This document shows positions 15,945 to 64,000 of a DNA stretch of 64,000 nucleotides, one piece after another. The notes under the pieces are model-generated. The model was not told the DNA's origin, made no database searches, and saw nothing but the letters and a program-made list of their open reading frames with translations. The position numbers and the translations under genes are program-made. How positions within the stretch are numbered: the stretch's first letter is position 1; the number at the start of each line of letters is the position of its first letter. Source of the DNA: Promethearchaeota archaeon (GTDB taxonomy: Archaea > Asgardarchaeota > Heimdallarchaeia > Hodarchaeales > Hodarchaeaceae); contig JBHLMN010000006.1 in NCBI GenBank assembly GCA_048938105.1, forward strand, positions 96,001-160,000. The letters are read 5' to 3'.

Positions 15945-18900
15945 CTACTTTTGTCTTGAAGCCAATTTCCGAACAACTATAAATGCAACGACGATTGTAA
16001 GAAAGAGGACAAGCCGAAGACCAAGAGGAGGCGAGGGAGGGGAAGGTAATTCATTCTGGATATTAAAGATGTCATCAGAGACATCATCAGCTTGTAAACC
16101 ATCTACACCTTCAGCAATAACTTTAAAGAGATATGAACCATCAGGAACATTAGTAGTATTCCAATCAAAAGTATATATAATGATATTTAGAGTAATATCA
16201 CCTCCTGAGGTTGTAGCGAATCGAATCCACGATTGACCATTATTTGATGAATAATAAAATGTATAATAGACTGGATATTCTCGATAATCGATCGCAGATT
16301 TCCAACGCACAGGTATTGTACCATTGAGGAGTTCTCCACCATTTGGAAACACTAATAATAGCCCTACTAATTCATATGGAGGTTGAATTGAAGATTGAAG
16401 TGGATTTTGGTCTTGGTTGTTTGAAGTACCATCAATGGAGTACGGGGTGTCTATAATACCATTAGTATCCACATCTAGAGACAAAACAATCACTTCTTGC
16501 CAGTAATTTAAAGAAAAAACATTGTTTTCCCCGTCGTCTGAAGCTTGAGATTTTCCATCAGGATTATTCCTAATAAAATCGTTCCATTTAATCTTATTTC
16601 TTCTAGAATATACATTAAGTGAAACTCCATAATCGTTATTGTTGGAGATAATATTGCTATAGATATCACAATCATTAGAGTTCCCAACAAGAATTCCATG
16701 TCTATCATTTTCATCTATAGTGTTCATGATAATATTGATTTCCTGACTCTCCTGTAAATAGATTCCGTATGCACCACTGTGGATAATAGTATTATTGAGA
16801 ACATTACAATCATAAGAATTTCTAATATGGATCCCGATCCAAACATTATAGGAAACAATATTACCAGAAATAGTACTGTATGAAGAGTCATGAATCTCTA
16901 GTCCTGATCCTTCATTTCTATTCAAGTCATTAAATGAAATATCACTTCCATCGCTATCGTCTATATAGATTCCACCTCCTCCATTGCTAGAAATAGTGTT
17001 GTTGAAGATGTTACAGTCACCAGATAACGTAAGATAAATACCCATCCACCCGTTAAAAGTAATGAAGTTACCAGAAAGTGTATTATTTTCAGAAGAGTCT
17101 AAATAAATTCCAAATTCATCGTTATCCGACACATTATTCCCTATAATCGTGTTCCCACTGGAAAAAAGAAGTGAAATTCCACTTCTACTATTACTTAATA
17201 AGTTGTTTCTTAGGATAGACAAATTAAAGCTTAAAATAGCTAGTAAACCGACAACACCATTCACCAGATTTTGATTCGTAACTGTCATATCGCTACAATT
17301 GACCAAAATGACTTGCCCTGCTCCACTAGGAATGGTTCCCCCTGATCTATCCTCCCAAAAAATGATTGGTTTTCCATTTATGGTATTATTGGTTACAAAT
17401 CTTTGAGAGAAATGCCCAAGGTGATCTCCATTAATATAAAAGTCATTATTTACTAGGTTATTTTCTACAATGATATTATTCCCCGAGTAATACAATGCAA
17501 TTCCAATCCCATCATTGTTAGAAACAGTATTATTCACCAGCACACTGTCCCAAGACTCATAAAACTCAATTCCTGACCAAAGGTTATTATAAATGAGATT
17601 GTTAGAGAGATTACTTCTCATAGAATGTTGGAGTTCAATTCCAATTCCATCATTTCTAAAAACGATATTATCAACAACTATACCACGTCCAGACTCATAA
17701 AACTCAATTCCTGATCCACTGTTATTGTGAATAAGATTGCTAGCGAGATAACAGCTCTCAGAGTTAACAAGTTCAATTCCAATTCCCTCATTATCGAAAA
17801 CGATATTATCAACGAGTGCACCACCCCTAGACTCATATAACTCAATTCCTGACCCACCGTTATTGTGAATAATATTGCTAGCGAGATAACAGCTCTCAGA
17901 GTTATCAAGTTCAATTCCGATTTCCCCATTGTTGAAAATAGAATTATTGACAAACACGCTATTCTCTGATTCATAGAGATAAATACCTCTCCACGTATTG
18001 TTAAATATGATATTATCAGTTAGATTGCTTTCCTTTGATGCCCAGAGGCTAATTCCATTCTCGTTATTGAAAATAGTGTTATTGACTACTTCATTTATCC
18101 CTGAGTTATCAAGTCCAATTCCATTCTCGTTATTGAAAATAGTGTTATTGACTACTTCACTTATACCTGAGTTATCAAGTCCAATTCCATACCCGTTTTT
18201 AGATATGATATTCCCGAGAATAATGCTTTTGTTTGAGTTGAATAGCCTAATTCCGCTTCCATCCCACCCATACCACCACCAGTTAAAATGGCTATTACTG
18301 GAGATCAAGTTATTCGAAATGATGCAGCTCTCAGAATTCCAAAGATATAATCCGCCTCTGGAATTATTGGAGATAATACTCCTAGTTATATTACTATTCT
18401 CCACTGTATTCAGAAATATTCCGTACCTACTGTTGTTTGAAATATTGTTATTGGAGATAACCAATTGAGAACTCGAAATCGCTATCAGTCCAGATGTGAC
18501 ATTTGAAAGGTTTTGATTGGAAATCGTTATATTAGTGCAATTCACTAAAAAGACCTGACCAGCCTCATCAGGGACGGTTTTATCAGTCATATTTTGCCAG
18601 AAAATTATTGATTTCCCGTTGATTGTGTTATTCGTCACTTCTAACTGACCATAGTCCTCAAACATCCCCTCATCAATGTCTATTCCATTATTTATCAGAA
18701 TATTGTCTTTGATCGTGTTATTTGGAGATTCATAAAGAGAAATTCCTGATTCTTTGTTATTGGAAATGACATTAGTGGAGATTGAACTAGATCCCGATCT
18801 TTCAAGGTAGATTCCAGTTCTACCGTTTTCAAGCAGGACATTATCTGAAATAGTACTTGCCGCGCTTTTCAATAAGAAAATTCCATCCTCCCAATTGCAT

Positions 18901-19901
18901 GAAATAGTGTTGTTCCAGATTGATAACTTAGGACTGGAAATTGCAAATATACCAGATGAAACTTCTGATAGATTTTGATTGGAAACCGTGATATTCGCAC
19001 AATTCACCAATATAACTTGGCCTGCTCCACTAGGAACGATTTTATCAGTCATATTTTGCCAAAAAATTAACTTTTTCCCGTTGATCGTGTTATTTGCTAT
19101 TTCTGTCTGAAAATATCGATCAGCTTCCCATCTATCAACATCAAAACTACAATTCACTAGAATATTATTTATTATCCTATTGTTTGCAGAATGAGAAAGC
19201 CAGATTCCAGACTCTTCGATGTTGATAAGAAAATTGTTTGTTATCTCACAGTTCTCTGAGTCTAAAATGTTAATTCCAACACTACTATCAGTTACAGTAT
19301 TGTATGACACGTTGATGTTCCATGAGTGCCAGAGCTCAATTCCAGACGACCATCAAGAAGAGTTAGTAGTTAGAGTGTTATTATTCAAGACAATGTCTCC
19401 TGACCATGCAAGAATTATACCAGAGTAGCTGTTGTTTACTATATAAGTATTGTAGACATGCACATTCCTCACATTTTCAAGGAGAATCCCGTTACTTCCT
19501 CCGCTAATGATGCAATTTCTTATGTGAAAATGACGATTAGTATTGGAAATTGCTATTATGTCACCCCAATGCTCTGGCGTGGGATTAATATGATAGTTCT
19601 CTAAAATATACGGATCTGATCGAGAGCCACTCCCTGGAAAGTCGTAAATACCGCTAAACTCGTCATTATTATCGATATGAATGGGGCCACGCTGGTCATA
19701 CTTTGTAGATAGATTCGGAGGAAGATTTTGGGATATAGTTTGGAAATCATGCGATGACTGGGTCGAAGATTCTCCCCTCATCTTTTGAACCATTAGGTTG
19801 CTGGTTTTTCCCTCAGTTATGTGAATAGAATACGAAAACGGTTCAATAAAGGTGATTAATAAGAATACAACCAAGAATTCCCCTTTTTGGTTAATTTTCA
19901 T
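15945..19901 (-). pseudogene. Large NosD/right-handed beta-helix surface protein with Ig-like domain and C-terminal TM anchor, interrupted by one in-frame TGA at 19353-19355 (ORFs 19353..19901 and 15945..19310)
   Basis: The frame continues across the stop: NNTLTTNSS*WSSGIELWHSWNINVSYNTVTDSS. The signal peptide and N-cap (GPIHIDNN...GSGSRSDPYILEN) are in the upstream ORF; PbH1 repeats, the PNGGE...DWNTTNVPDGSY domain and TM+RK tail are in the downstream ORF. Confidence 0.75.
18051..18190. repeat. 66-bp intragenic tandem duplication (2 units plus partial) encoding 22-aa beta-helix rungs
   Basis: Units 18051-18116 and 18117-18182 differ at 2 positions; protein GIGLDNSGI(S/N)EVVNNTIFNNEN twice. 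Confidence 0.9.
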
Positions 19902-20584: not shown

Positions 20585-22390
20585 TTACTTTGATAATATT
20601 GATCTTCGCTTATATAGCACAGCCATTGTCCCTATGATTGCTAAGACTGGAAACATCTCGAACCCAATCGTACCGTTCGTAGTTGAGAACGTTGTTGTAG
20701 TCTTTTGTGTTGTTGATGTCGTAGAGGATTTATCTGGAACCCAATCTGGAAGGTTGATTATGCTTAAGAATACGTCATATCTACCTTTACATTCCTTCTG
20801 ATAAGCGTTTTCTGTGACGGGGAAATCATATGAAAAAGTGCAACCTGTGATACATAGATTGCCTGCACTATTGAGTACAGATCCGTATGACCCTATCTCA
20901 ATATAATTTCCTCCTATAAAGGTCGATGCTTGGAGAGCGGAGCCGTCTGCAGCTAATTTTACAGCATAGATGTCGAAATATTCAGTATCAATGACTGCTG
21001 ACTCATTAGGTACAAGAGGAAAATCACTAGATCTCGTCATCCCTGTGATATATAATCTGTTTCCACTATCTAATATACAAGCTCCACTCATTTCATCATC
21101 ACTTCCACCAATGAAGGTTGAATAGAGAAGGGTGGAGCCATCTGCAGCTAATTTTGTGACGAAAGAATCGCCACCTCTTTGATCAAAATAAAAATGAGAA
21201 TCTTGAACCCAACCATTACCTCCATTAAATGTTTGATCATAAGCATTGGTCGTTGTTGGAAAATCACTAGATTTTGTTTCACCGTAAAGATATAGGTTAT
21301 CTGAGCTATCTAGTGTAAGAGATTCAATATGATCATATTTACTTCCACCAATGAAGGTTGAATATACTAGAGAGGTTCCATTGGCTGATATTTTTGTAAT
21401 GAAACCATCAGAACTACCACCATAAGTTGTATTATATGCTGTACTCGTCGTTGGAAAATCATCTGACCACGTTTCACCTGTAATGTATATATTCTCAGAG
21501 CTGTCTAGAGTAATCCCCCGTGAAAGTTCATCACCACTTCCGCCAATAAAGGTGGAATAGAGAAGCTTTGACCCATTGGTTGAGATTTTACTAACATAAG
21601 CATCACCAAAGAAGCGATATAATCCCCAAGGATACAAATAAACCTCATTACTATACCCCCCATATGTTGAGTCAAATGCAGTTGGTGTTGTTGGAAAATT
21701 AGCTGAGTGAGTCGAACCTGTTATATAAACATTATTTGATCTATCTAAGACAATATCATCTACATAATCATTGTCGGTTCCACCAATGAAGGTCGAATAG
21801 AGTAGTTCTGAGCCATCTGCAGATAATTTGGCCACAAAAGCGTCAGTTGTCCCGTTGTGTGTTGAATCATAAGCATGTTTTATTGGGAAATTTTTGGAAT
21901 GTGTTACACCACAAATATATACATTATTTGAACTATCTAATGCAATGCTTTGAGCGTAATCGTGGTTACTTCCACCTAAAAAGGTTGAATATAAAAGCTG
22001 TGAGCCATCAGCTGAGAATTTAACAATAAATACGTCATAACCACCATTATGAGTGGGATCATAAGCATCCGTTGTATTTGGGAACAGTGGGGACATTGTG
22101 CCTCCACAGATGTATATATTGCCTGAACTATCTAAAGCCATATCACCTAATCCCTCCCAGTCACCACCACCGATATAGGTTGATGCAGTTAACTTTTGTG
22201 GATCGATCGTAATAGATTGTAAAGGATCATCCGCTATTAATAGTACTGGTTCTCCCTTGGTGTCTTCAATCAGCTGTATCGATTTGTCATGGTTTATAGG
22301 ATTTATTGCAGAATATATGAAAAGGATCGATAGCGAAAAGAAGCTTATTAAGAATATTACTTTCTTTTGTTTAATTAATTCTTTATTCAT
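20585..22390 (-). CDS. Secreted SBBP beta-propeller repeat protein with Ser/Thr linker and C-terminal sorting/TM anchor
   Basis: Repeats of YSTFIGGS.D....IALDSSNNVYITG.T.S.DFP; N-terminal signal; TTSTTQKTTTT linker; IGFEMFPVLAIIGTMAVLYKRR tail. Confidence 0.85.
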   Translation of the reverse strand: MNKELIKQKKVIFLISFFSLSILFIYSAINPINHDKSIQLIEDTKGEPVLLIADDPLQSITIDPQKLTASTYIGGGDWEGLGDMALDSSGNIYICGGTMSPLFPNTTDAYDPTHNGGYDVFIVKFSADGSQLLYSTFLGGSNHDYAQSIALDSSNNVYICGVTHSKNFPIKHAYDSTHNGTTDAFVAKLSADGSELLYSTFIGGTDNDYVDDIVLDRSNNVYITGSTHSANFPTTPTAFDSTYGGYSNEVYLYPWGLYRFFGDAYVSKISTNGSKLLYSTFIGGSGDELSRGITLDSSENIYITGETWSDDFPTTSTAYNTTYGGSSDGFITKISANGTSLVYSTFIGGSKYDHIESLTLDSSDNLYLYGETKSSDFPTTTNAYDQTFNGGNGWVQDSHFYFDQRGGDSFVTKLAADGSTLLYSTFIGGSDDEMSGACILDSGNRLYITGMTRSSDFPLVPNESAVIDTEYFDIYAVKLAADGSALQASTFIGGNYIEIGSYGSVLNSAGNLCITGCTFSYDFPVTENAYQKECKGRYDVFLSIINLPDWVPDKSSTTSTTQKTTTTFSTTNGTIGFEMFPVLAIIGTMAVLYKRRSILSK

Positions 22391-22766: not shown

Positions 22767-22836
22767 CGAGTATTTATATGTTAATATTCAAACTCTTCAA
22801 CAGATCAACAACCTTATTTTTTTGGCTGATTTTACT

Positions 22837-24006
22837 ATGGCTGGATTGTCAAACGATATCAAAGATACTATTAAGTTTGAATCACTTTTGATGGATATTT
22901 TAAGACCAAACATCAACGAACAGCATGCTCGTATCCTCGCTATGATGTTCAAACTCGGTGGGTATACTACTCTGAATGTCTTGACAAAAAAGCTTACTAT
23001 GGCGCAACCTACTGTGAGTAACAGAGTAGCTGAATTAGTTGAATTGGGTGGTTTTCTAAGAAAGAACTCTGAACTCATGCCCATTGCCCTGGTCCTCCTT
23101 CTTACAGTTGACGAATTAGAATTACTCTTAAGGAACAAAATTATCGCTTACCGAGAGGCATGTCAATTTTTGGTGCAATTGTCAGATATCTCTGACAGTG
23201 AATTGGGAAAATACACATTTATTCAAGCCATTGATAAGTTATATCCTAAATCAACAAGCTATCAATCATATTTAGTACAGCTCATAGCTAATACTTATCT
23301 CCACAGCCCTGTTTCAAGAAATAGATTATTTCAGCAAGTTCGATCTAATTTAGGAGAATCCAAGAAATTAGAAAAAGAATTAAGTTCAATAATTGCTTCT
23401 CATGACGATATTTTTCATATTATTCATCAGAAACAGCAGATAAAGGAAATGTTTGTCCAACCAAAACTCCCTTTAAGGATTTTCGCGCAAAATCGTTTGA
23501 ACTATCTTGAATCCCTATTCTCATATTACCAAGAACTCCTCATAGAGTTATCAGATTTAATGTCAAGTGATTATGATTCAATTACCCCTCATAAATCTCT
23601 CCATTATCCCTCAGAAATCAAACGTAGATTAAATAGATGTCTAAACCATTATTCCACGATTCGTGTTATTGATAATTCGGTCTATCAGGAAAGAGATGAC
23701 ACGAATGGAATATTAGAGCTTTTGTTTGAGAGTAAGAATTTTACACAAGATCATAAAGTTATGATATTAACTAAAAAAAGGGTATTGGTTCCAGATAACA
23801 TTAATTCATCCCAAATTACTGTTCGACCTTTATCTAAGCAGATCAGTAGAGATTATATAACAAGAGATTTCATAATCTTCGAGAAGCATGGATGTTTAGT
23901 ATGTCCATCTGCTTCCAGTGATCCCTATTATAACATATCTCCCCACTTCATTTCAGAGATTTTGAATACTTTTCATTCGATTTGGAGAAAAAAACATGTT
24001 GATTGA
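22837..24006 (+). CDS. TrmB-like transcription regulator: wHTH, second degenerate wHTH, and PLD-like effector domain (copy 1)
   Basis: ARILAMMFKLGGYTTLNVLTKKLTMAQPTVSNRVAELVELG HTH; C-terminal KVMILT...RDFIIFE...NTFHSIW. Start moved from TTG 22822 to ATG 22837 by alignment with the paralog (MAGL vs MVGL). Confidence 0.7.
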   Translation: MAGLSNDIKDTIKFESLLMDILRPNINEQHARILAMMFKLGGYTTLNVLTKKLTMAQPTVSNRVAELVELGGFLRKNSELMPIALVLLLTVDELELLLRNKIIAYREACQFLVQLSDISDSELGKYTFIQAIDKLYPKSTSYQSYLVQLIANTYLHSPVSRNRLFQQVRSNLGESKKLEKELSSIIASHDDIFHIIHQKQQIKEMFVQPKLPLRIFAQNRLNYLESLFSYYQELLIELSDLMSSDYDSITPHKSLHYPSEIKRRLNRCLNHYSTIRVIDNSVYQERDDTNGILELLFESKNFTQDHKVMILTKKRVLVPDNINSSQITVRPLSKQISRDYITRDFIIFEKHGCLVCPSASSDPYYNISPHFISEILNTFHSIWRKKHVD

Positions 24007-24475
24007 CTTTTTAAGGCTGATTAAAGGATTTATTTTAGTTATAGGCCCTAAAGAAGCAGGTAAAACTAGCATTTTGAGAAGGCTTGTAACAGGAACATTT
24101 GAAGAACACAAACCAACTCTGGGTTTTCACGAAGAGAAAATAGCTAGAATGAGAATAATTGAGATCGGAGGACATCAAAATTTTAAGGATTACTGGAAGA
24201 TTGCTCTGGAACAGTCTCCAGTGCATATTTTTTATGTTATCGACATAACAAAAAAGTCTGAATTTACCGATTATCGACAATTCTTAGATGATTTCAATCA
24301 TTCATATCCCCAGCTTACTGAAAAGACAACATTAATAGCTAATAAAATTGATCTAACAATTAAGATTCCCGAACACTTTAAAGAGATTAAGTCTATTATT
24401 CTATCCAGTGCAAAAAATGGGGAAGGGATGTTTGATATATTAGAAACTATTGCAAAATATAAAGATAGCGTTTAG
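23996..24475 (+). CDS. Arf/Arl-like small GTPase (copy 1)
   Basis: G1 GPKEAGKTS, G2 PTLGF, G3 EIGGH, G4 NKID, G5 SSAKNG; overlaps the upstream regulator by 11 nt. Confidence 0.88.
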   Translation: MLIDFLRLIKGFILVIGPKEAGKTSILRRLVTGTFEEHKPTLGFHEEKIARMRIIEIGGHQNFKDYWKIALEQSPVHIFYVIDITKKSEFTDYRQFLDDFNHSYPQLTEKTTLIANKIDLTIKIPEHFKEIKSIILSSAKNGEGMFDILETIAKYKDSV

Positions 24476-24540: not shown

Positions 24541-26895
24541 TCATTTTATGAGAATTTGGTATAATTCGTCCTCGATTCGCTTAATCCAATCTAAGCTAAT
24601 CTCTGAAATATCTGATAGAATATTTGATTTGAGGAACTGTGTGATTTCGTCTCTTTTTGATAAAATAATTTTGTCGAACTGTTTTTGATAAAAAATTATC
24701 AAAATTGCAGGAACAACTCCTCCCAATTTAAGTATTCTCGGATCCTTAACCATATTATCCCTCACATTAAAGCTAAAAGAGAGGAAATGCCATTCTATAT
24801 CGGTAGGTTCAACAATGGAAGTGTGAGGAAAAGGACCATATATATTTTCGATTTCTCCATGCTGATATAGTACTGCACTATACTCTATCATTGAACGAAG
24901 CTCGTGATCATCAAAGGAGCAATTCCCACCTTTTCCTTGAATAGATAGTCCTTCGTCAGTGAGTGATCCTATACAAACAGCAATAGATAAGTTCTCTAGA
25001 TCTCTTGGAAGAACGGCCGCTTTTTTCTTCCACATAATGAACCCTATGGCTATACTCGCCATAATTATTAACAACATAAGGAAAACTAGATATAATGAGG
25101 ATTTTGGAGAGTTCGAAATGGCAAATTCACCAGAAAAAGCTGTTGATGATAGATCTCCTGAACATGTTGCCACAACTTTGATCATATAAGTTGAATTGTC
25201 TTCAAAAAGAGTCGTATCCCATGTATAATTGGTGGTTGTAAGTCCTGAAACTAGTAAAGTCCATTCATTTCCACCGTCCGTAGAATAATACACAGAATAG
25301 CTGATTAGATGGTTCCGCCAAGAATCATTGACTACAGTCCATTCAATGATGATCATTTCAGAGATGGTTTCACCAGTAATCGGAGACGTAATGTTAAGGG
25401 GAGATAGTTGATGAGGTGGAGAGCGAGATGATAAGGGATATGGATCATATGTATTAGTAATCACTCCAAAAATAGGGTATTTATCATCTACAATACCATC
25501 ATTATTAATATCTGGATCTGTCCACTCACTCCAATAGTTGTATGAAAAATTATTGTTTTCTCCAGAGTCAAGTGCCTGAGAGGATACACCTATATTGTTT
25601 CCAATAAAATCATTCCATTCAAATAGGTTATTGGAAGCTTGTGATGATAAATAAATCCCAAAGTTGGTGTTATTTGAGAAGACATTTCCATAAAGGCTGT
25701 TATTCGAGGAGTACTCAATGTAAATACCGTAACTGTTATTGTTGACAGTATTAGCAGAAAGAATACAACTCTCCGATTTATAAAGTTCAATACCATATCC
25801 AGAATTGTTAGAGGCGATATTATTAGATAGAATATTGCTTCTAGAGTTCCGAATAATAATTCCTACATTCTTATTGTTATCAACAGTGTTGGTTGAAAGA
25901 AAACAACTCTCAGATTCAAAAAGTACAATACCATGTCTAAAATTACGAGAAATAACATTACTGGAAATATTGCAATTTTGAGATCTGCTGTTATTGATTC
26001 CAGACATACCATTTTTGTGAATGAGATTACTGAAGAGAGAGGTACTATCAGAATTTTGGATATTAATTCCATTAAAATGGTTGTTAAAGAGGTTATTATC
26101 TGAAAGCGTGCAATTACGAGAGTTCCAAAGGGAGATGCCATCTTCCATATTATTAAATATCAAATTATCTCTTAGACTGTTCGATTCAGATTCATCAAAA
26201 AAAATTCCTATCTGTACGGAATCTGAAACCAGATTTTTTGAAAGAACATTATTGCCTGAATCATAAAGATTAATTCCATTTTTTTCGTTGTTGCCTATTG
26301 TATTGTTAGAAAGTGTATTGTTTTTCGAACGAATGAAAAAGATCCCATCCCAATTGTTCCTAGACATGTTATTTCTTGAAATTATGTTATTGTTAGAGTC
26401 TACTAGTTGAACCCCTCCCAAGGAGTTTTTGGTGATTGTATTTCTGTCAATGATAATACTCTCTGAAAATTCAATAGAAATCCCTTTTGCATTATTCTCA
26501 ATTATGGTGTTATAAGTAATAAGCCCATTGATGACATTAGTAAGAGAAATTCCTTTTTTTCCCCCATATAAAAAACAGGCATTTATATGAAAATGCACAT
26601 TAGTGTTCCTAATTTCGATTAGGTTTTTATCTGATGGTCCTGTGATATTATATCCAGTAATTTCATAAGGAAATGTCAAGCTTCCATCACCTACCCAGTT
26701 TTCCTTCGTTGCAGTAGCACTAAAGTTTGAATTACCATTGATGTAAATAGGGCTCTGCTCTTCATATTTTATAGAATGGTTAAAAAGAGTAGAGTCAGAG
26801 CCAAGATGATAATTGTGAGTAAGATTTAATGAAACGTTAATTGAGAGAAATAGAAAAAATATAACGAAATGAAAAGAGTTCTGGGAGAACTTCAT
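24541..26895 (-). CDS. Single-pass receptor-like protein: signal peptide, NosD beta-helix, Ig-like domain, TM and conserved cytoplasmic longin/uDENN-like domain
   Basis: PbH1 repeats; YSTDGGNEW Ig-like domain; TM LYLVFLMLLIIMASIAIGFIMW-KKK; cytoplasmic CIGSLTDEGL...EYSAVLYQHG...YGPFP. Confidence 0.8.
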   Translation of the reverse strand: MKFSQNSFHFVIFFLFLSINVSLNLTHNYHLGSDSTLFNHSIKYEEQSPIYINGNSNFSATATKENWVGDGSLTFPYEITGYNITGPSDKNLIEIRNTNVHFHINACFLYGGKKGISLTNVINGLITYNTIIENNAKGISIEFSESIIIDRNTITKNSLGGVQLVDSNNNIISRNNMSRNNWDGIFFIRSKNNTLSNNTIGNNEKNGINLYDSGNNVLSKNLVSDSVQIGIFFDESESNSLRDNLIFNNMEDGISLWNSRNCTLSDNNLFNNHFNGINIQNSDSTSLFSNLIHKNGMSGINNSRSQNCNISSNVISRNFRHGIVLFESESCFLSTNTVDNNKNVGIIIRNSRSNILSNNIASNNSGYGIELYKSESCILSANTVNNNSYGIYIEYSSNNSLYGNVFSNNTNFGIYLSSQASNNLFEWNDFIGNNIGVSSQALDSGENNNFSYNYWSEWTDPDINNDGIVDDKYPIFGVITNTYDPYPLSSRSPPHQLSPLNITSPITGETISEMIIIEWTVVNDSWRNHLISYSVYYSTDGGNEWTLLVSGLTTTNYTWDTTLFEDNSTYMIKVVATCSGDLSSTAFSGEFAISNSPKSSLYLVFLMLLIIMASIAIGFIMWKKKAAVLPRDLENLSIAVCIGSLTDEGLSIQGKGGNCSFDDHELRSMIEYSAVLYQHGEIENIYGPFPHTSIVEPTDIEWHFLSFSFNVRDNMVKDPRILKLGGVVPAILIIFYQKQFDKIILSKRDEITQFLKSNILSDISEISLDWIKRIEDELYQILIK

Positions 26896-57940: not shown

Positions 57941-59116
57941 ATGGTTGGCTTAGCAACTGTTACTAACGAAACTGTGACATTCGAACCCCTTTTTATTGAT
58001 ATCCTCGAGGACAACATCAATGAGCAACACTCACGAATCCTTGCTTTGATGTTTAGACTTGGTGGTTACACCACTTTGAATGTCTTGACAAATCTTATCG
58101 GCATTGCTCAACCTACTGTTAGTATTAGAGTAGATGAACTCGTGAAAAAGGGATATATTCGAAAAAACACAGAGCTAATGCCAATGGCGCTCGTTCTTCT
58201 ATTGACTCAAGATGACTTGGATATTCAGCTAAGAAAGCGATTAGAAGTACAACGAAATGCCGCCAAATTTCTCCAACAAGCATCTGACATTAAGAATATG
58301 CAGCTGGTTGAAGACACCTTCATAAAAGCAATTCAGATTTTATATGATACTGAAGAGATTTTAGCTAAGATGATTGCATATATTTATCTCCATCAGAGAA
58401 TTGCAAGAAATAAACTATACCAAATGATTGATCCTGAGGATTCTAAATTTGGATCCATAGATGAACAGGAAAGGGATAGAAGGAAGAAAGATGCGATCAT
58501 TACTTCTCGTCCTGAAATTTTTCACATCATCTACAAGAAACATCAGAAGAAAGCGATGTTTATTCAACCCCGACTTCCATTAAAACTATTTGTGAAACAT
58601 CGTTTAGTATACCTAGAATCATTATACACATATTATAGGGAACTCTTGTTGAAGTTAGGCTCTTTTATGTCAGATGAATACGAATCAATTATTCCTCATC
58701 AACTTCTCAACTATCCTTCTGAATTAAAAATACGAATAGAGACTTGTTTAAAGCACTATTCAATGATCAGAGTCATTGACAATGCAGTCTATCGTCATAA
58801 TAATGGGACTAATGGCGTTGTAGATTTGATTGTTACACGTAATAACTTCTCTCAAAACCATAAAGTGATGATACTTTCTAATAAGAGTATTAAGCTTCCG
58901 AAAACAATAGACACTTCCCAATTTGAGATACGTCCTCTCAAAGGCCGTATTAGCCGGGATTATATGAACCGTGATTTCATTATCTTTGGTAATCATGGTT
59001 GTTTAGTCCTTCCGTCCCAACCTAGATCTATTCCTTATTATAATATCGCACCACGGTTCACCTCATCAGTACTGGATATTTTTAAGGCGAATTGGAGGAA
59101 TTCTACTGCTATCTGA
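57941..59116 (+). CDS. TrmB-like tandem wHTH transcription regulator (copy 2)
   Basis: Full-length paralog of 22837..24006 (NINEQHxRILAxMFxLGGYTTLNVLT, AQPTVS, ELMPxALVLLLT, YPSE, RDFIIF, YYNI). Confidence 0.75.
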   Translation: MVGLATVTNETVTFEPLFIDILEDNINEQHSRILALMFRLGGYTTLNVLTNLIGIAQPTVSIRVDELVKKGYIRKNTELMPMALVLLLTQDDLDIQLRKRLEVQRNAAKFLQQASDIKNMQLVEDTFIKAIQILYDTEEILAKMIAYIYLHQRIARNKLYQMIDPEDSKFGSIDEQERDRRKKDAIITSRPEIFHIIYKKHQKKAMFIQPRLPLKLFVKHRLVYLESLYTYYRELLLKLGSFMSDEYESIIPHQLLNYPSELKIRIETCLKHYSMIRVIDNAVYRHNNGTNGVVDLIVTRNNFSQNHKVMILSNKSIKLPKTIDTSQFEIRPLKGRISRDYMNRDFIIFGNHGCLVLPSQPRSIPYYNIAPRFTSSVLDIFKANWRNSTAI

Positions 59117-59693
59117 TTTTCTACGCTTGATTAAAGGGTTTGTTTTATTTATTGGACCTAGCTCTGCTGGTAAAACCAGTATTTTAAGACGCCTTGTGAC
59201 AGGAAAATTCGAACATCAGGAACCGACGTTAGGATTTTCCGAAGAAAACGTAGCAAAAGTAAGAATAATTGAAATTGGAGGACAATCTACTTTTAGGCAT
59301 TATTGGAAGGATGCTATTGATCAAAATCCTGTAAATATCTTCTTTGTTATCGATGTAACTAAAGAAAAGGACTACAGTGAGTATGTGGATTTTATTGAGG
59401 AATATGAAGGCAATTACCCCCAAATCGCACAAATGACTGTTTTAACTGCCAACAAAATAGATCTAGTACAGAAAATCCCGACTCATCTAAATAATGTCAC
59501 GATTCCAATTCAATGCAGTGCAAAGACTGGAGAAGGAATGTTAGATATATTAGAGATGATTGCCAGTCACCGAAATGAAGCTGAAGCAGTAATACAACCT
59601 CAACGAATTGAGCAAAGTAACAGTGAACAAACCATCAACAATGATGAAGAAAAGGCAGAATCGATATTAAGGGAATTTCAAGGAAAATTCTAA
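59106..59693 (+). CDS. Arf/Arl-like small GTPase (copy 2); probable CTG start at 59106
   Basis: G1 GPSSAGKTS, PTLGF, EIGGQ, NKID, CSAKTG. Upstream in-frame LLSDFLRLIKG matches copy 1 MLIDFLRLIKG; GGAGGA SD at 59094-59099. Confidence 0.85.
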   Translation: MLSDFLRLIKGFVLFIGPSSAGKTSILRRLVTGKFEHQEPTLGFSEENVAKVRIIEIGGQSTFRHYWKDAIDQNPVNIFFVIDVTKEKDYSEYVDFIEEYEGNYPQIAQMTVLTANKIDLVQKIPTHLNNVTIPIQCSAKTGEGMLDILEMIASHRNEAEAVIQPQRIEQSNSEQTINNDEEKAESILREFQGKF

Positions 59694-60319: not shown

Positions 60320-61411
60320 TCAAGTGTATGTTGGTACAAACTGAAAACATTCTGAGATTAAGGTGGTAGCTTCTTTATAATCTTCTTCCTTAATAATCGC
60401 TTCGGGAAGAACAGCTTCAAACCTATCAACAAACTTCTCCGAAAAACTCTCAAGAGTATTTATAAGTAATTTTGACGTTTTGACAGTAACTAATACAAAA
60501 GAGAATTCACTCTTATGGTTAATGACTAGTATTGATTTATCGAGGTGGATCTCCCGAACATTTGGGTAGTGTAAAGACTCTTTTAAAATGGTGCTAATTC
60601 CTTCAGTTTCTTCTGAGAAAAACGCTTCACCTGTGGGAGTATCTTGAGTACTTATCCAACGATGAGAAAAAAGAAGTATACCCTCATTGTTGAAAACAGC
60701 TAATCTAGACGTCTTATAAGGTAAAAGAAAAAATATTTGAGGTTGAAATGTAAATGGAATCGCCATCAATATTATTCCAATCAAGAACAATATTTCATTA
60801 ATACCCAATCCAGGGGGGATAAATGTAGTAATGATGTTAATAGAAGGAATGATCCCCATGAAGATGGTTCCTACCAACACCATAATTGAGTATCGTTCTA
60901 AATTTTGGGGACTGTTGATAGAGAGTTTAACAGCATAATAAGTCCATAATAAGGATCTAAAGGAATATAACATAGCTGCAGCGTAATAAGTATGTACGAT
61001 AACATCTTTCGCTGCTTGACCTGGTACTAAAGCATAAATTAAGACTGTAGCTACAATTAAGCCTAAAATTGTAGTTTTTATTGGATCAACAGATGTTCGA
61101 TTAATATAATCGACAAATAACAGTAGGAACAAAGTACTAGGTAGCAAAACAAAGTAACCAATATATCCAAGGAAAGTTGCCAAAGTCATTTGAAAAAATG
61201 GGAATGGCACATCGATTTCTGATAAGAGTAAGATAGTGGATATAGTTGTAAGTCCCATCCAAAAAAACAATCCTCCCCAATCTAGCGCCAAATAGAGAAA
61301 ATGAGGATGTTTTTGCTTCAGATATCTGTATAATGAAACTATCGGAACAATGGCTAAAAATGGTACTGTTAATAAAGCAACAATATTTTCAAAAGCTAAA
61401 ACTAATGCCAT
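60320..61411 (-). CDS. 7TM membrane protein with C-terminal longin-like domain
   Basis: Seven hydrophobic segments, then RLAVFNNEGILLFSH...GISTILKE...VREIHL...FVLVT...LESFSEKFVDRF (beta-beta-alpha-beta-beta-beta-alpha-alpha pattern). Confidence 0.75.
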   Translation of the reverse strand: MALVLAFENIVALLTVPFLAIVPIVSLYRYLKQKHPHFLYLALDWGGLFFWMGLTTISTILLLSEIDVPFPFFQMTLATFLGYIGYFVLLPSTLFLLLFVDYINRTSVDPIKTTILGLIVATVLIYALVPGQAAKDVIVHTYYAAAMLYSFRSLLWTYYAVKLSINSPQNLERYSIMVLVGTIFMGIIPSINIITTFIPPGLGINEILFLIGIILMAIPFTFQPQIFFLLPYKTSRLAVFNNEGILLFSHRWISTQDTPTGEAFFSEETEGISTILKESLHYPNVREIHLDKSILVINHKSEFSFVLVTVKTSKLLINTLESFSEKFVDRFEAVLPEAIIKEEDYKEATTLISECFQFVPTYT

Positions 61412-61620: not shown

Positions 61621-63345
61621 TTACGATAAAATAAAACTTAATATCTGTTTCTCAACTTGATTAAGCAAATCAGGTGTGATTTCTGAAACTTTTGAGTATT
61701 TTCTTAATATTAAATTTAATGTGTCACAAATGTCTTTTTTATACAACATTATTATAGAGTCGAATTGTTTGGAATAAAACAACAACAAAGCTGCAGGAAC
61801 TTCCCCCATATGTTTTATAACTCTTAAATCTTCAATTGAGTCATCTATAACTTTAATCCAATATGATACAAAATTCCAACCTTCTTGTAGAACTGTAATA
61901 GTCTTTTCTTCTTCTTTTAAACTTGTAAGAGGAAATGGTCCATACATTTCACCTTCTTTTCCATATTGGTATAGCACAGCACTATACTCTAACATAGATT
62001 GAAGTTGATGGTTACTAAAAGGACAGTTCTCATTTTTTCCCTGAATAATCAATCCTTTATCTGTGAATGATCCAAAACATAATCCTAGTCTTATTTTTTG
62101 CTTGTCAACTTGCTTCAATAATAGTTTCCTTGGAGAACTTACTCGTTTTCGCCATAGAAGGACTCCAAAAAGTAAACTTACTACAATTATAATTACGAAC
62201 AGTGCGAAAATGAACCGAAATAAAGGTGTAAAGATATTTTGTACTGAAAAAGGCCCAAAAAAGGCAGTACTTGTTATATCATTCTCCAAACATGATGCTT
62301 GAACCCTTATACAATAGCTAGAACCATCCTCGACCATCATTGTGTCAAAAATGTAACTATTCGTCCGAAGATCTGATATTAGATGTTTCCAAATTCTTTG
62401 ATCCTTAGAAAAATGCAGAGAGTATATAATATCATATTTAAATGAATCAATTGCTTCTATCCATTGAATGAGAACTTTTCCTTTCAATTTTTCCTTATTG
62501 ATTGGATTTATGATTATCGGGTCTGTTAATAGGTGTTTTTGAGGAGGATTCGGATTACTTAAGGGGTAAGTATCGTTGTTATTAGCAGATCCAGTAATTG
62601 AGTACGATTCATCAATGATACCATCAGCATCAACATCAAATTCGATCCAATCACTCCAGAAATTAAAAGCAAATTTATTACAAAATCCATTGTCATTAGC
62701 CTGACAGTTATAATTATTGTTCTCAGAGAAATCATTCAGTTTTATGATATTTAGCTCTGAGTCTTCCCCTATTTCAATACCGTAATGACTATTATTGGAA
62801 ATCAGGTTTTCTGATATTATATTCTTTTTAGAAAAGTAATCCAATTGGATTCCAACTTCGTTATTGAAGAAGGTATTATTGGTGATATATCCGTTTGAAA
62901 CATTGTTAAATAAAATACCAATTCCTTTCCCTTTTCCATTAAAAAAGCATTTTTTTATTTGAAAACACATGTCTGAATTGTTTATTTTGATTGAATCCCC
63001 AATATTAGTGAAATTATACCCCTTAATAATATAAGGATTTGTTATTGTTCCATTCCCCCTCCAATTCTCTGTAGTGGCCAACTTATCAAAATCATTATTA
63101 CTATCAATACTTATGGGTTCATGTTCCACAGTTTCTAAAGTATCATAGAGATACCTTGAAAAAAGGGTATTATCTTTGGATCTTAGTCCAACTAACTGAT
63201 CATAATAGTAAGATGTAGAATGATGTTTCGTTTGAATATCGTTCATATCGATACTAGAAATTAGACTCAATGTAGAAATTATTAGTATAACAAAGCTAAT
63301 ATTCCACAAAAAGATTCTTTTTTTCATTATTTTCCCATATATCAA
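61621..63345 (-). CDS. Single-pass receptor-like protein: short NosD beta-helix, Ig-like domain, TM and conserved longin/uDENN-like cytoplasmic domain
   Basis: Paralog of 24541..26895: HEPISIDSN...GNGTITNPYII, TM+RKR, CFGSFTDKGL...EYSAVLYQYG...YGPFP. Confidence 0.8.
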   Translation of the reverse strand: MIYGKIMKKRIFLWNISFVILIISTLSLISSIDMNDIQTKHHSTSYYYDQLVGLRSKDNTLFSRYLYDTLETVEHEPISIDSNNDFDKLATTENWRGNGTITNPYIIKGYNFTNIGDSIKINNSDMCFQIKKCFFNGKGKGIGILFNNVSNGYITNNTFFNNEVGIQLDYFSKKNIISENLISNNSHYGIEIGEDSELNIIKLNDFSENNNYNCQANDNGFCNKFAFNFWSDWIEFDVDADGIIDESYSITGSANNNDTYPLSNPNPPQKHLLTDPIIINPINKEKLKGKVLIQWIEAIDSFKYDIIYSLHFSKDQRIWKHLISDLRTNSYIFDTMMVEDGSSYCIRVQASCLENDITSTAFFGPFSVQNIFTPLFRFIFALFVIIIVVSLLFGVLLWRKRVSSPRKLLLKQVDKQKIRLGLCFGSFTDKGLIIQGKNENCPFSNHQLQSMLEYSAVLYQYGKEGEMYGPFPLTSLKEEEKTITVLQEGWNFVSYWIKVIDDSIEDLRVIKHMGEVPAALLLFYSKQFDSIIMLYKKDICDTLNLILRKYSKVSEITPDLLNQVEKQILSFILS

Positions 63346-63537: not shown

Positions 63538-64000
63538 TTAGAAAAATGAGAGAACTCGGATATCATTTTCAATATGGTCAAGTTTTTCAGGATTAAAAAC
63601 AGAAATATCTGAAATAGTACCCATCATCGATTTAAATAAGTTGATAAGATGTTTTTTTCGCATTATTATCAATGACTCGTATTTTTTCGGATAGTATAAC
63701 AATAGAACCGCAAGAACACCCCCACTTGGAATTTTCATTCTCGTATCCTTTACTGTAGGATCTATTACCTGGAATCCAAAAGAAATAAAATGCATTTCTT
63801 CTTCTGGTAAGCCTTGTTTCTTTTCCCCCATCCTTATACTAGTTAAAGGAAAAGGCCCGTATATAGTTTCAATTTCTCCATGTTGATAGAGAACTGCACA
63901 ATATTCCAGCATTGATTGAATAACTGATTCATTAAATGGACAAGATTTAGTTTTTCCTCGGATACTCAATCCATCGTCAGTGATCGAACCCAAGCAAAGC
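63538..64000 (-). CDS. C-terminal cytoplasmic domain of a third receptor-family protein (5' part beyond the window edge)
   Basis: Frame is open to the edge: LCLGSITDDGLSIRGK...EYCAVLYQHG...YGPFP. Confidence 0.8.
   Translation of the reverse strand, partial: LCLGSITDDGLSIRGKTKSCPFNESVIQSMLEYCAVLYQHGEIETIYGPFPLTSIRMGEKKQGLPEEEMHFISFGFQVIDPTVKDTRMKIPSGGVLAVLLLYYPKKYESLIIMRKKHLINLFKSMMGTISDISVFNPEKLDHIENDIRVLSFF

Follow-up and report, generated by a model that had tools for sequence, protein, structure and literature searches.

A longin-fold tail on archaeal type-I membrane proteins as a candidate regulator of a neighboring Arf-like GTPase

Longin-fold dimers act as GTPase-activating proteins (GAPs) in the Folliculin-FNIP2 complex (yeast Lst7-Lst4; PDB 6nzd, 6ulg, and 4zy8), which serves RagC/D, and in the C9orf72-SMCR8 complex (CSW; PDB 7o2w and 6lt0), whose clients are Arf GTPases; the same fold is found in NPRL2-NPRL3 of GATOR1 and in Npr2-Npr3 of SEACIT. 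In bacteria, MglA, a Ras-like GTPase, is encoded next to its roadblock-dimer GAP, MglB, which supplies no arginine finger and does not span the membrane. Asgard archaea possess dozens of small GTPases and likewise dozens of roadblock and longin proteins. FLCN-like longin + DENN proteins have been described in Heimdall archaea, as have fusions of NPRL2-like longins to two-component domains (Liu et al., bioRxiv 10.1101/2020.10.19.343400), and Asgard longins of the FLCN/SMCR8 type were reported to carry a GP motif and an arginine finger, the question of their partner GTPases being raised and left open (PMC12290439). In the Lokiarchaeon MK-D1, GTPases and their regulators do not generally share operons, which complicates their pairing (PMC10933270), and the ArfR preprint does not treat gene neighborhoods. 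Here, we describe a longin-fold domain that forms the C-terminal tail of membrane proteins in a Promethearchaeota archaeon (Hodarchaeales; assembly GCA_048938105.1). The window analyzed is a 64,000-nucleotide stretch of contig JBHLMN010000006.1 (positions 96,001 to 160,000), and all coordinates below are counted from its first nucleotide. The gene at 24541-26895 (minus strand), hereafter receptor 1, faces the gene of an Arf-like GTPase, and fold, conservation, gene linkage, and a modeled complex together suggest that its tail controls this GTPase, most likely as a GAP.

Three open reading frames (ORFs) on the minus strand share a C-terminal domain of ~150 residues at 41-44% identity (43-44% to the first one). 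Their alignment contains 45 invariant columns, among which lie all the motifs that the original prediction, made from the DNA letters, had read from the three aligned stretches (C.GS.TD.GL.I.GK, SM.EY.AVLYQ.G, YGPFP.TS, and D....D.R). A profile of the three tails retrieved exactly these three places from the 5.85-Mb genome, all in the region of the window, with E values of 1e-82 to 1e-89, and chance is therefore excluded as the source of the similarity. The window is low in G+C (30-37%), and the closest relatives of its proteins carry the names Heimdallarchaeota/Hodarchaeales.

Receptor 1 (784 residues) comprises a signal peptide, a right-handed beta-helix (NosD/PbH1) ectodomain, and a beta-rich juxtamembrane domain (25096-26895, from Pfam), followed by a single transmembrane (TM) helix identified by hydropathy and charge count (25027-25095; residues 601-623, then KKK..R) and by the cytoplasmic tail (24541-25026; residues 624-784 plus the stop codon), which was delineated by alignments, structure prediction, fold searches, and the complex model. 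The beta-helix spans approximately residues 100-452 (Pfam NosD 7.6e-56, Beta_helix 2.1e-51), and the ectodomain holds 18 N-x-S/T sequons. Receptor 2 (574 residues; 61621-63345, minus strand) repeats this layout with a signal peptide, a short beta-helix, a beta-rich domain, a TM helix (62155-62223), and a longin tail (61621-62154); its beta-helix match is confined to residues 97-231 (E 5e-7), so the two long ectodomains do differ, as had been claimed. The third tail (63538-64000, minus strand) belongs to a gene that continues beyond the window's end to the equivalent of position 64254 (L003:1498-2214 in the genome) and encodes a protein of 238 residues with two N-terminal TM helices and no ectodomain. 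All three had been called receptor-like; a type-I receptor layout (hydrophobic N-terminus, NosD/beta-helix ectodomain, one TM helix, and cytoplasmic output domain) is indeed present in the 784- and 574-residue proteins, but not in the 238-residue one, in which the ectodomain is missing. Among 19 membrane-bound members of the family, 71 Lys/Arg residues lie within 15 residues after the TM helix versus 11 before it, and N-glycosylation sequons are concentrated in the ectodomains. The positive-inside rule thus places the tail in the cytoplasm, and a location outside the cell, which had been named in advance as counter-evidence, is rejected by the distribution of charge around the TM helix.

An AlphaFold2 model of the tail, built from an alignment of six sequences, displays the order beta-beta-alpha-beta-beta-beta-alpha-alpha(-alpha), with a predicted local distance difference test score (pLDDT) of 84.6 and a predicted TM-score of 0.81; DSSP assigned strands to residues 9-17, 20-26, 56-61, 73-89, and 94-108, and helices to residues 34-50, 109-128, and 139-154. 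This is the element order that had been inferred from the letters, and the five-stranded antiparallel sheet with longin connectivity and no N-terminal helix defines a longin fold. Structural comparison by VIA-align against 48,161 representative chains, in which scores less than 1 Z apart count as ties, returned longin-type domains for all of the top 18 matches. The best was the longin domain of a Lokiarchaeota Roadblock-Longin protein (8yqg; Z 12.5, root-mean-square deviation 3.0, 133 residues), followed by the longin of Lst4 (Z 11.8) and a chain of the FLCN complex (Z 10.1), with the shared fold extending over 124-129 residues, and then by C9orf72-SMCR8 (Z 9.9), Npr2/3-type chains of SEA/GATOR1 (Z 9.5 and 9.0), VAMP7 (Z 9.1), sedlin/TRAPP (Z 8.7-8.0), and Sec22 (Z 8.0). 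Hence FLCN/SMCR8/NPRL2-type longins are the nearest to the tail, ahead of SNARE, TRAPP, and adaptor longins, by small margins. Foldseek gave the same leaders with modest scores (8yqg, E 9.4e-4, TM-score 0.44). The independent model of the protein in the ESM Atlas matched Asgard longin-GTPase fusions (TM-score 0.73), a Heimdall cluster with Pfam Folliculin on 23% of its members (0.69), and eukaryotic clusters of NPR2 (0.67), C9orf72 (0.66), Folliculin (0.64), and uDENN/Avl9 (0.62), and a feature neighbor of the tail in the Atlas is an archaeal cluster with PF06218 (NPR2) on 19% of its members.

The modeling and the fold searches had been proposed together with the original prediction of a uDENN/longin module of the folliculin/SMCR8/NPR2 type; longins led both searches, and a fold unrelated to longin, DENN, or roadblock, the outcome that would have spoken against the prediction, did not emerge. 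The longin half of the prediction therefore stands, with Lst4, FLCN, C9orf72-SMCR8, and Npr2/3 at the top, and the strict uDENN half falls: neither a DENN core nor a dDENN follows the domain, as both chains stop at the last longin helix (784/784 and 574/574), making it a stand-alone longin. The Roadblock/LC7 fold was rejected as well, since the model opens on a strand and closes with two to three helices and roadblocks reached only Z 6.1-7.2 over 91-99 residues, and so was a longin SNARE (VAMP7, Sec22, Ykt6), the TM helix preceding the domain and nothing following it. At the level of sequence, Pfam Folliculin (PF11704), NPR2 (PF06218), and Longin (PF13774) matched none of 55 domain sequences (E up to 5) or the full proteins, PDB sequence-profile searches from 3 and from 55 tail sequences retrieved no longin, and an NCBIfam scan of neighboring proteins and two soluble family members, which did not include the tail itself, yielded no name for it. 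Because no sequence profile reaches the longin families, the assignment, drawn from a predicted structure, is one of fold and not of demonstrated homology.

An exhaustive HMMER search of 1.84 billion representative sequences found only 71 tail proteins, and no Pfam domain falls on the tail in any of the family members retrieved. Within the class, of which we surveyed 82 species-representative genomes, the family is present in 75. Its domain is attached to diverse partners: a signal peptide, ectodomain, and TM helix (with a beta-helix in 10 proteins, WD40 in 2, or a beta-sandwich only), two TM helices (~235 residues), soluble TPR arrays, soluble proteins of 330-470 residues that carry the domain at the N-terminus, and, in the source genome, a receiver domain, the copy in this case being diverged. 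A constant domain joined to inputs that vary in this way is consistent with an output or signaling role for the tail.

The receiver fusion is a 309-residue protein (G000:C6:365471-366400; L019:4471-5400) whose N-terminus is a response-regulator receiver domain (Pfam 4e-21) and whose C-terminal part matches the tail family (E 2e-7); judged from these matches, it is a two-component input joined to a longin-like domain of the same kind. Among the soluble members, those of ~350 residues (P0055 and relatives) have the longin domain at the N-terminus, and their gene lies directly downstream of a small GTPase gene. The language-model features of P0055 have as nearest clusters 347-residue Asgard proteins with an Arf domain or longin-Arf-domain fusions, and we offer as a lead that the C-terminal half of these proteins may be a degenerate GTPase-like domain and not a DENN. 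A resemblance of the C-terminal half of soluble members to the TrmB-like neighbor described below was sought and rejected.

Only three positions are invariant across the 55 domains, namely Gly20 in the first hairpin, Gly58, and Pro61, and three more are conserved in at least 90% of them, namely Pro59 and, in the beta4-beta5 loop, Asp89 and Arg91. In receptor 1, these correspond to Gly649, Gly687, and Pro690 and to Pro688, Asp718, and Arg720, respectively, so that a GPxP motif (Gly687-Pro688-x-Pro690) and a DxR motif (Asp718-x-Arg720) can be defined. At the site of the GP motif in the beta1-beta2 loop, the Gly is kept in 55/55 domains, while the Pro is replaced by Leu, Ile, or Met in receptor tails; D-G-P is found only in distant paralogues of 245 and 430 residues. 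Since these distant paralogues read D-G-P...D-P-R, the tail family probably belongs with the published GP-motif longins.

The gene of receptor 1 is convergent with that of GTPase 1, an Arf-like small GTPase of 159 residues (23996-24475, plus strand; Pfam Arf 1.2e-15, clade alignment, and complex model), the two being separated by a gap of 65 nucleotides (nt). The surveyed genomes contain 16 genes of this GTPase clade, and 14 of them are no more than 4.1 kb away from a high-scoring tail gene, 7 in convergent orientation with gaps of 40-55 nt; of the two exceptions, one sits at the end of a contig and the other in an incomplete genome. Within the genus, all 11 genomes with high-scoring tails have the GTPase clade, and all 8 without the clade lack such tails. 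For comparison, the genome holds 62 Arf-type genes over its 5.85 Mb, a background of approximately one every 94 kb. Of 9 close homologues from other families of the class, 6 directly adjoin a small GTPase of a different clade, mostly upstream and on the same strand, and this recurrence with another clade and another gene order makes plain inherited synteny an unlikely explanation. Four distant paralogues in the source genome (245 residues, 341 residues, the receiver-domain fusion, and 306 residues) and eleven elsewhere have no adjacent GTPase, so the linkage is limited to the closer subfamily; no GTPase was found near the soluble relative P0036 either.

The loci fall into two types. In type A, a TrmB-like regulator gene and the GTPase gene point toward the receptor gene (TrmB-like > GTPase < receptor), and in type B, the two face a polytopic protein, a short receptor, and a two-TM tail protein (TrmB-like > GTPase < polytopic protein < short receptor < two-TM tail protein). 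These neighbors also accompany receptors that carry WD40 or TPR modules. Where relatives carry two tails at one locus, one copy is often altered, the second tail gene having lost the Arg and in some cases the hairpin Gly too: this copy is the two-TM protein in three type-B loci, whose first receptor keeps both, and the second receptor in one type-A two-tail locus, the row of whose first receptor was unreadable. Both tails of the two-tail locus in the window retain the Arg, and the sample showing the loss is small and closely related.

We modeled two tail copies together with GTPase 1, GTP, and Mg, alongside three controls. The complex scored 0.79, the best control scored 0.01, the runs agreed in at least 94% of contacts, and the partners had a pLDDT of at least 88; a score of 0.79 is reached by 58 of 80 solved complexes and by 2 of 110 mismatched pairs, a calibration that is rough here given the custom alignments and riding ligands. 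In the model, the tail side of the interface consists of the hairpin 16-22 with Gly20, helix 38-50, residues 63-66, and residues 89-92 with Asp89 and Arg91, and the GTPase side of the N-terminal helix, P-loop residues 19-20, switch I (37-48), and switch II (60-63). Gly20 contacts GTPase residues 60-63, and Arg91 contacts P-loop residue 20 and switch I residue 40, so that the family's few conserved residues map, in the predicted assembly, onto the catalytic face of the GTPase. The model supports binding between tail and GTPase and does not show it.

Compared with the described systems, the tail resembles Folliculin-FNIP2 in having an Arg in the loop before the last strand and a Gly in the first hairpin, in being modeled against a small GTPase's P-loop and switch regions, and, with regard to FNIP, in the frequent absence of the Arg from one copy in the two-tail loci of relatives; an Arg-less second tail recalls FLCN-FNIP, NPRL2-NPRL3, and SMCR8-C9orf72 alike. 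Unlike Folliculin-FNIP2, it has no DENN domain, is fused to a TM helix and an ectodomain, has an Arf-like instead of a Rag-type candidate partner, and shows no sequence similarity, Pfam Folliculin matching 0 of 55 tail members. C9orf72-SMCR8 shares with it an Arf-family client, here in the form of the gene neighbor, and the arginine-finger logic that we propose for the tail, but is a soluble heterodimer with WDR41 that has DENN domains and a full GP motif, of which the tail keeps the Gly only. In contrast to GATOR1 and SEACIT, the tail has neither NPRL2-type C-terminal domains nor a DEPDC5 partner, and no sequence profile connects them. MglA-MglB offers a prokaryotic precedent for a GTPase regulated by a dimer of the roadblock/longin superfamily from an adjacent gene, although MglB differs in its roadblock topology and N-terminal helix and scored only Z 6.3. 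The top structural match, 8yqg, shares only 14% identity with the tail and comes from a soluble protein of two domains, which the title of the entry describes as a dimer in the crystal; we know of no published function for it. Finally, the published Asgard FLCN/SMCR8- and NPRL2-like longins share with the tail the Heimdall lineage, the structural class, the Arg, and the hairpin Gly, but they are soluble longin(+DENN) proteins or two-component fusions, whereas the tail forms the C-terminus of type-I membrane proteins and belongs to a conserved module that also comprises a specific clade of Arf-like GTPases and a TrmB-like regulator. In the literature searched, we found no description of type-I receptors with longin tails or of a TrmB-like/GTPase/receptor module; FLCN/NPRL2-type longins of Asgard archaea are thus already published, and the receptor-GTPase-regulator module is new within that literature.

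Taken together, we favor, with a probability of roughly 0.62, the reading that the tail is a stand-alone longin of the folliculin/Lst7-Lst4/SMCR8/NPRL2 type that controls the neighboring Arf-like GTPase, most likely as a GAP. A single TM helix would tether the longin to variable extracytoplasmic domains (a beta-helix here; WD40, a beta-sandwich only, or nothing in relatives), and the tail, acting as a dimer, would bind the adjacent divergent GTPase on the face that bears switch I, switch II, and the P-loop and set its nucleotide state, most likely by GTPase activation, with the near-invariant Arg720 of the beta4-beta5 loop inserted beside the nucleotide. Fold, topology, conservation, and gene linkage provide the observed foundation of this reading and the model its binding mode and geometry; GAP activity, the direction of the signal, and the output are steps that we infer.

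Several points weigh against it. The GP motif of the published GAP longins is only half kept in the receptor tails, and common descent of the tail with the eukaryotic GAP longins finds no support in any sequence profile. The high score of the complex may reflect the modeling program's memory of solved FLCN-Rag, GATOR1-Rag, C9orf72-SMCR8-ARF1, or MglA-MglB structures. The equation of Arg91 with the arginine finger of FLCN (R164), NPRL2 (R78), and SMCR8 (R147) is tentative, drawing on the complex model and on background about these proteins instead of a superposition. Genomes drawn from a single genus do not count as independent samples, and lower-scoring paralogues (245, 353, and 430 residues) have no GTPase neighbor. 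In addition, most of the longin platforms characterized so far are exchange factors or scaffolds (PMC10933270).

This last point also speaks for the foremost competing explanation, an unlikely one, that the tail binds the GTPase without being a GAP. It would then recruit or anchor the GTPase at the membrane as a longin-dimer platform, or be an exchange factor (Mon1-Ccz1, TRAPP, or DENN-like), and the conserved Arg would be structural or interface-forming. Fold, gene linkage, and the complex model are common to this explanation and to the GAP reading, and the incompleteness of the GAP-marking GP motif in receptor tails suits it. However, GAP-type longins provide the best structural matches (Z 12-9.5, versus 8.7-6.9 for TRAPP/Mon1-Ccz1), and an Arg found in at least 90% of 55 members is modeled beside the P-loop. 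Considerably more doubtful is an inside-out arrangement with no external signal, in which surface adhesins or enzymes would carry the longin tail as a sorting or positioning tag, read by the GTPase to place, cluster, or turn over the protein. Eukaryotic Arf-family GTPases do act on cargo and membranes, NosD/PbH1 beta-helices are typical of carbohydrate-binding or carbohydrate-cleaving surface proteins, and two-TM forms without an ectodomain bear the same tail; yet this tail is also fused to cytoplasmic sensor-type modules (TPR arrays and, in the source genome, a receiver domain), as fits an output domain, and the conserved co-transcribed TrmB-like regulator suggests a transcriptional output. 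A PAS/GAF-like small-molecule sensor or a SNARE-type regulatory longin, unrelated to the GTPase and next to it through functionless inherited synteny, is very improbable, for although the fold lists include GAF/PHY and PAS domains and SNARE longins (VAMP7, Sec22, Ykt6) with scores of Z 6-9, they rank under the FLCN/Lst4-type longins, a SNARE motif is missing and the TM helix precedes the domain, GTPase adjacency recurs with another clade and gene order in other families of the class, and the conserved residues fall on the modeled GTPase interface.

Returning to the tail as a GAP, the module may couple the cell surface to gene expression, since the GTPase gene overlaps that of the TrmB-like regulator. 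Extended in this way, the scheme would be an archaeal outside-in pathway running from the receptor through its folliculin-type longin GAP tail, which in some loci would have a partner tail lacking the arginine, as FLCN has in FNIP, to a dedicated Arf-like GTPase and a co-transcribed TrmB-like transcription factor, a chain that we regard as speculative and, as a whole, unlikely. Gene order nevertheless supplies one longin family with a candidate GTPase partner, in that a defined Arf-like clade accompanies it in two locus types and beside differing ectodomains, and this concrete regulator-GTPase pair consists of two small soluble domains of 160 residues each that can be expressed and assayed directly. 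Should the tail be an arginine-finger GAP, longin-GAP chemistry would be older than eukaryotes and wired to the cell surface, possibly to transcription, with a bearing on the origin of eukaryotic GTPase signaling. Should the whole pathway exist, it would represent a prokaryotic forerunner of longin-GAP/small-GTPase nutrient signaling to transcription (FLCN-Rag-TFEB) and, for archaea, the first transmembrane signal chain based on a small GTPase.

The GTPase clade comprises 76 clusters, and 40 of these entered the alignment. Its members are marked by an N-terminal amphipathic helix and by the motifs GPxxAGKTS, PTLGF, EIGG(Q/H), which is unusual, NKxD, and SAK; the G3 Asp is invariably replaced by Glu, and the catalytic position is occupied by His or Gln. 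GTPase 1 has the helix followed by GPKEAGKTS, PTLGF, EIGGH, NKID, and SAK. The clade scores ~56 bits against Pfam Arf, compared with up to 160 bits for other GTPases of the genome. Its members usually end in a long linker and a conserved ..ESILKEFQGKF, which is present in GTPase 2 and missing from the 159-residue GTPase 1; the ..ILKEFQGKF peptide looks like a docking motif for some partner. GTPase 2 (59106-59693, plus strand), 56% identical to GTPase 1, ends in ..ILREFQGKF. The N-terminal helix of the clade (MLSDFLRL) is matched upstream of its listed TTG start, and the sole codon at the Met position is a CTG at 59106, which gives an 11-nt overlap with the preceding regulator gene, as at the first locus (23996 versus 24006); GTPase 2 probably uses this non-canonical start codon.

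The gene overlapping that of GTPase 1 by 11 nt encodes regulator 1, a TrmB/TrmBL2-like winged-helix protein of 394 residues with a PLD-like C-terminal domain (22822-24006, plus strand), assigned from an AlphaFold2 model (pLDDT 88) and Foldseek matches to TrmBL2 (8.4e-7) and TrmB (1.5e-5); 43 of its relatives lie on the same contigs as the GTPase clade. Its paralogue, regulator 2 (57941-59116, plus strand), is 51% identical to it. Between GTPase 2 and receptor 2 lies the gene of a polytopic membrane protein of 363 residues (60320-61411, minus strand), with ~7 TM helices and a cytoplasmic C-terminal domain of 125 residues; in five loci, it is retained at the position between GTPase and short receptor, with a duplication in one. 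It yielded nothing against the tail profile, either alone or as a six-sequence alignment, and its C-terminal domain has no Pfam or PDB match; by eye, the residue pattern of this domain reads beta-beta-alpha-beta-beta-beta-alpha, and it may be a further domain of the roadblock/longin kind. On the far side of regulator 1, a protein of 601 residues with SBBP beta-propeller repeats is encoded divergently upstream (20585-22390, minus strand). A metagenomic relative encodes a protein with SBBP repeats at the corresponding place beside its WD40-receptor module (L005:13918-15687), and the SBBP-repeat protein may be a further conserved neighbor of the module. Elsewhere in the window, an ORF of 182 residues with a beta-helix match (19353-19901, minus strand) lies directly upstream of an ORF of 1121 residues on the same strand (15945-19310).

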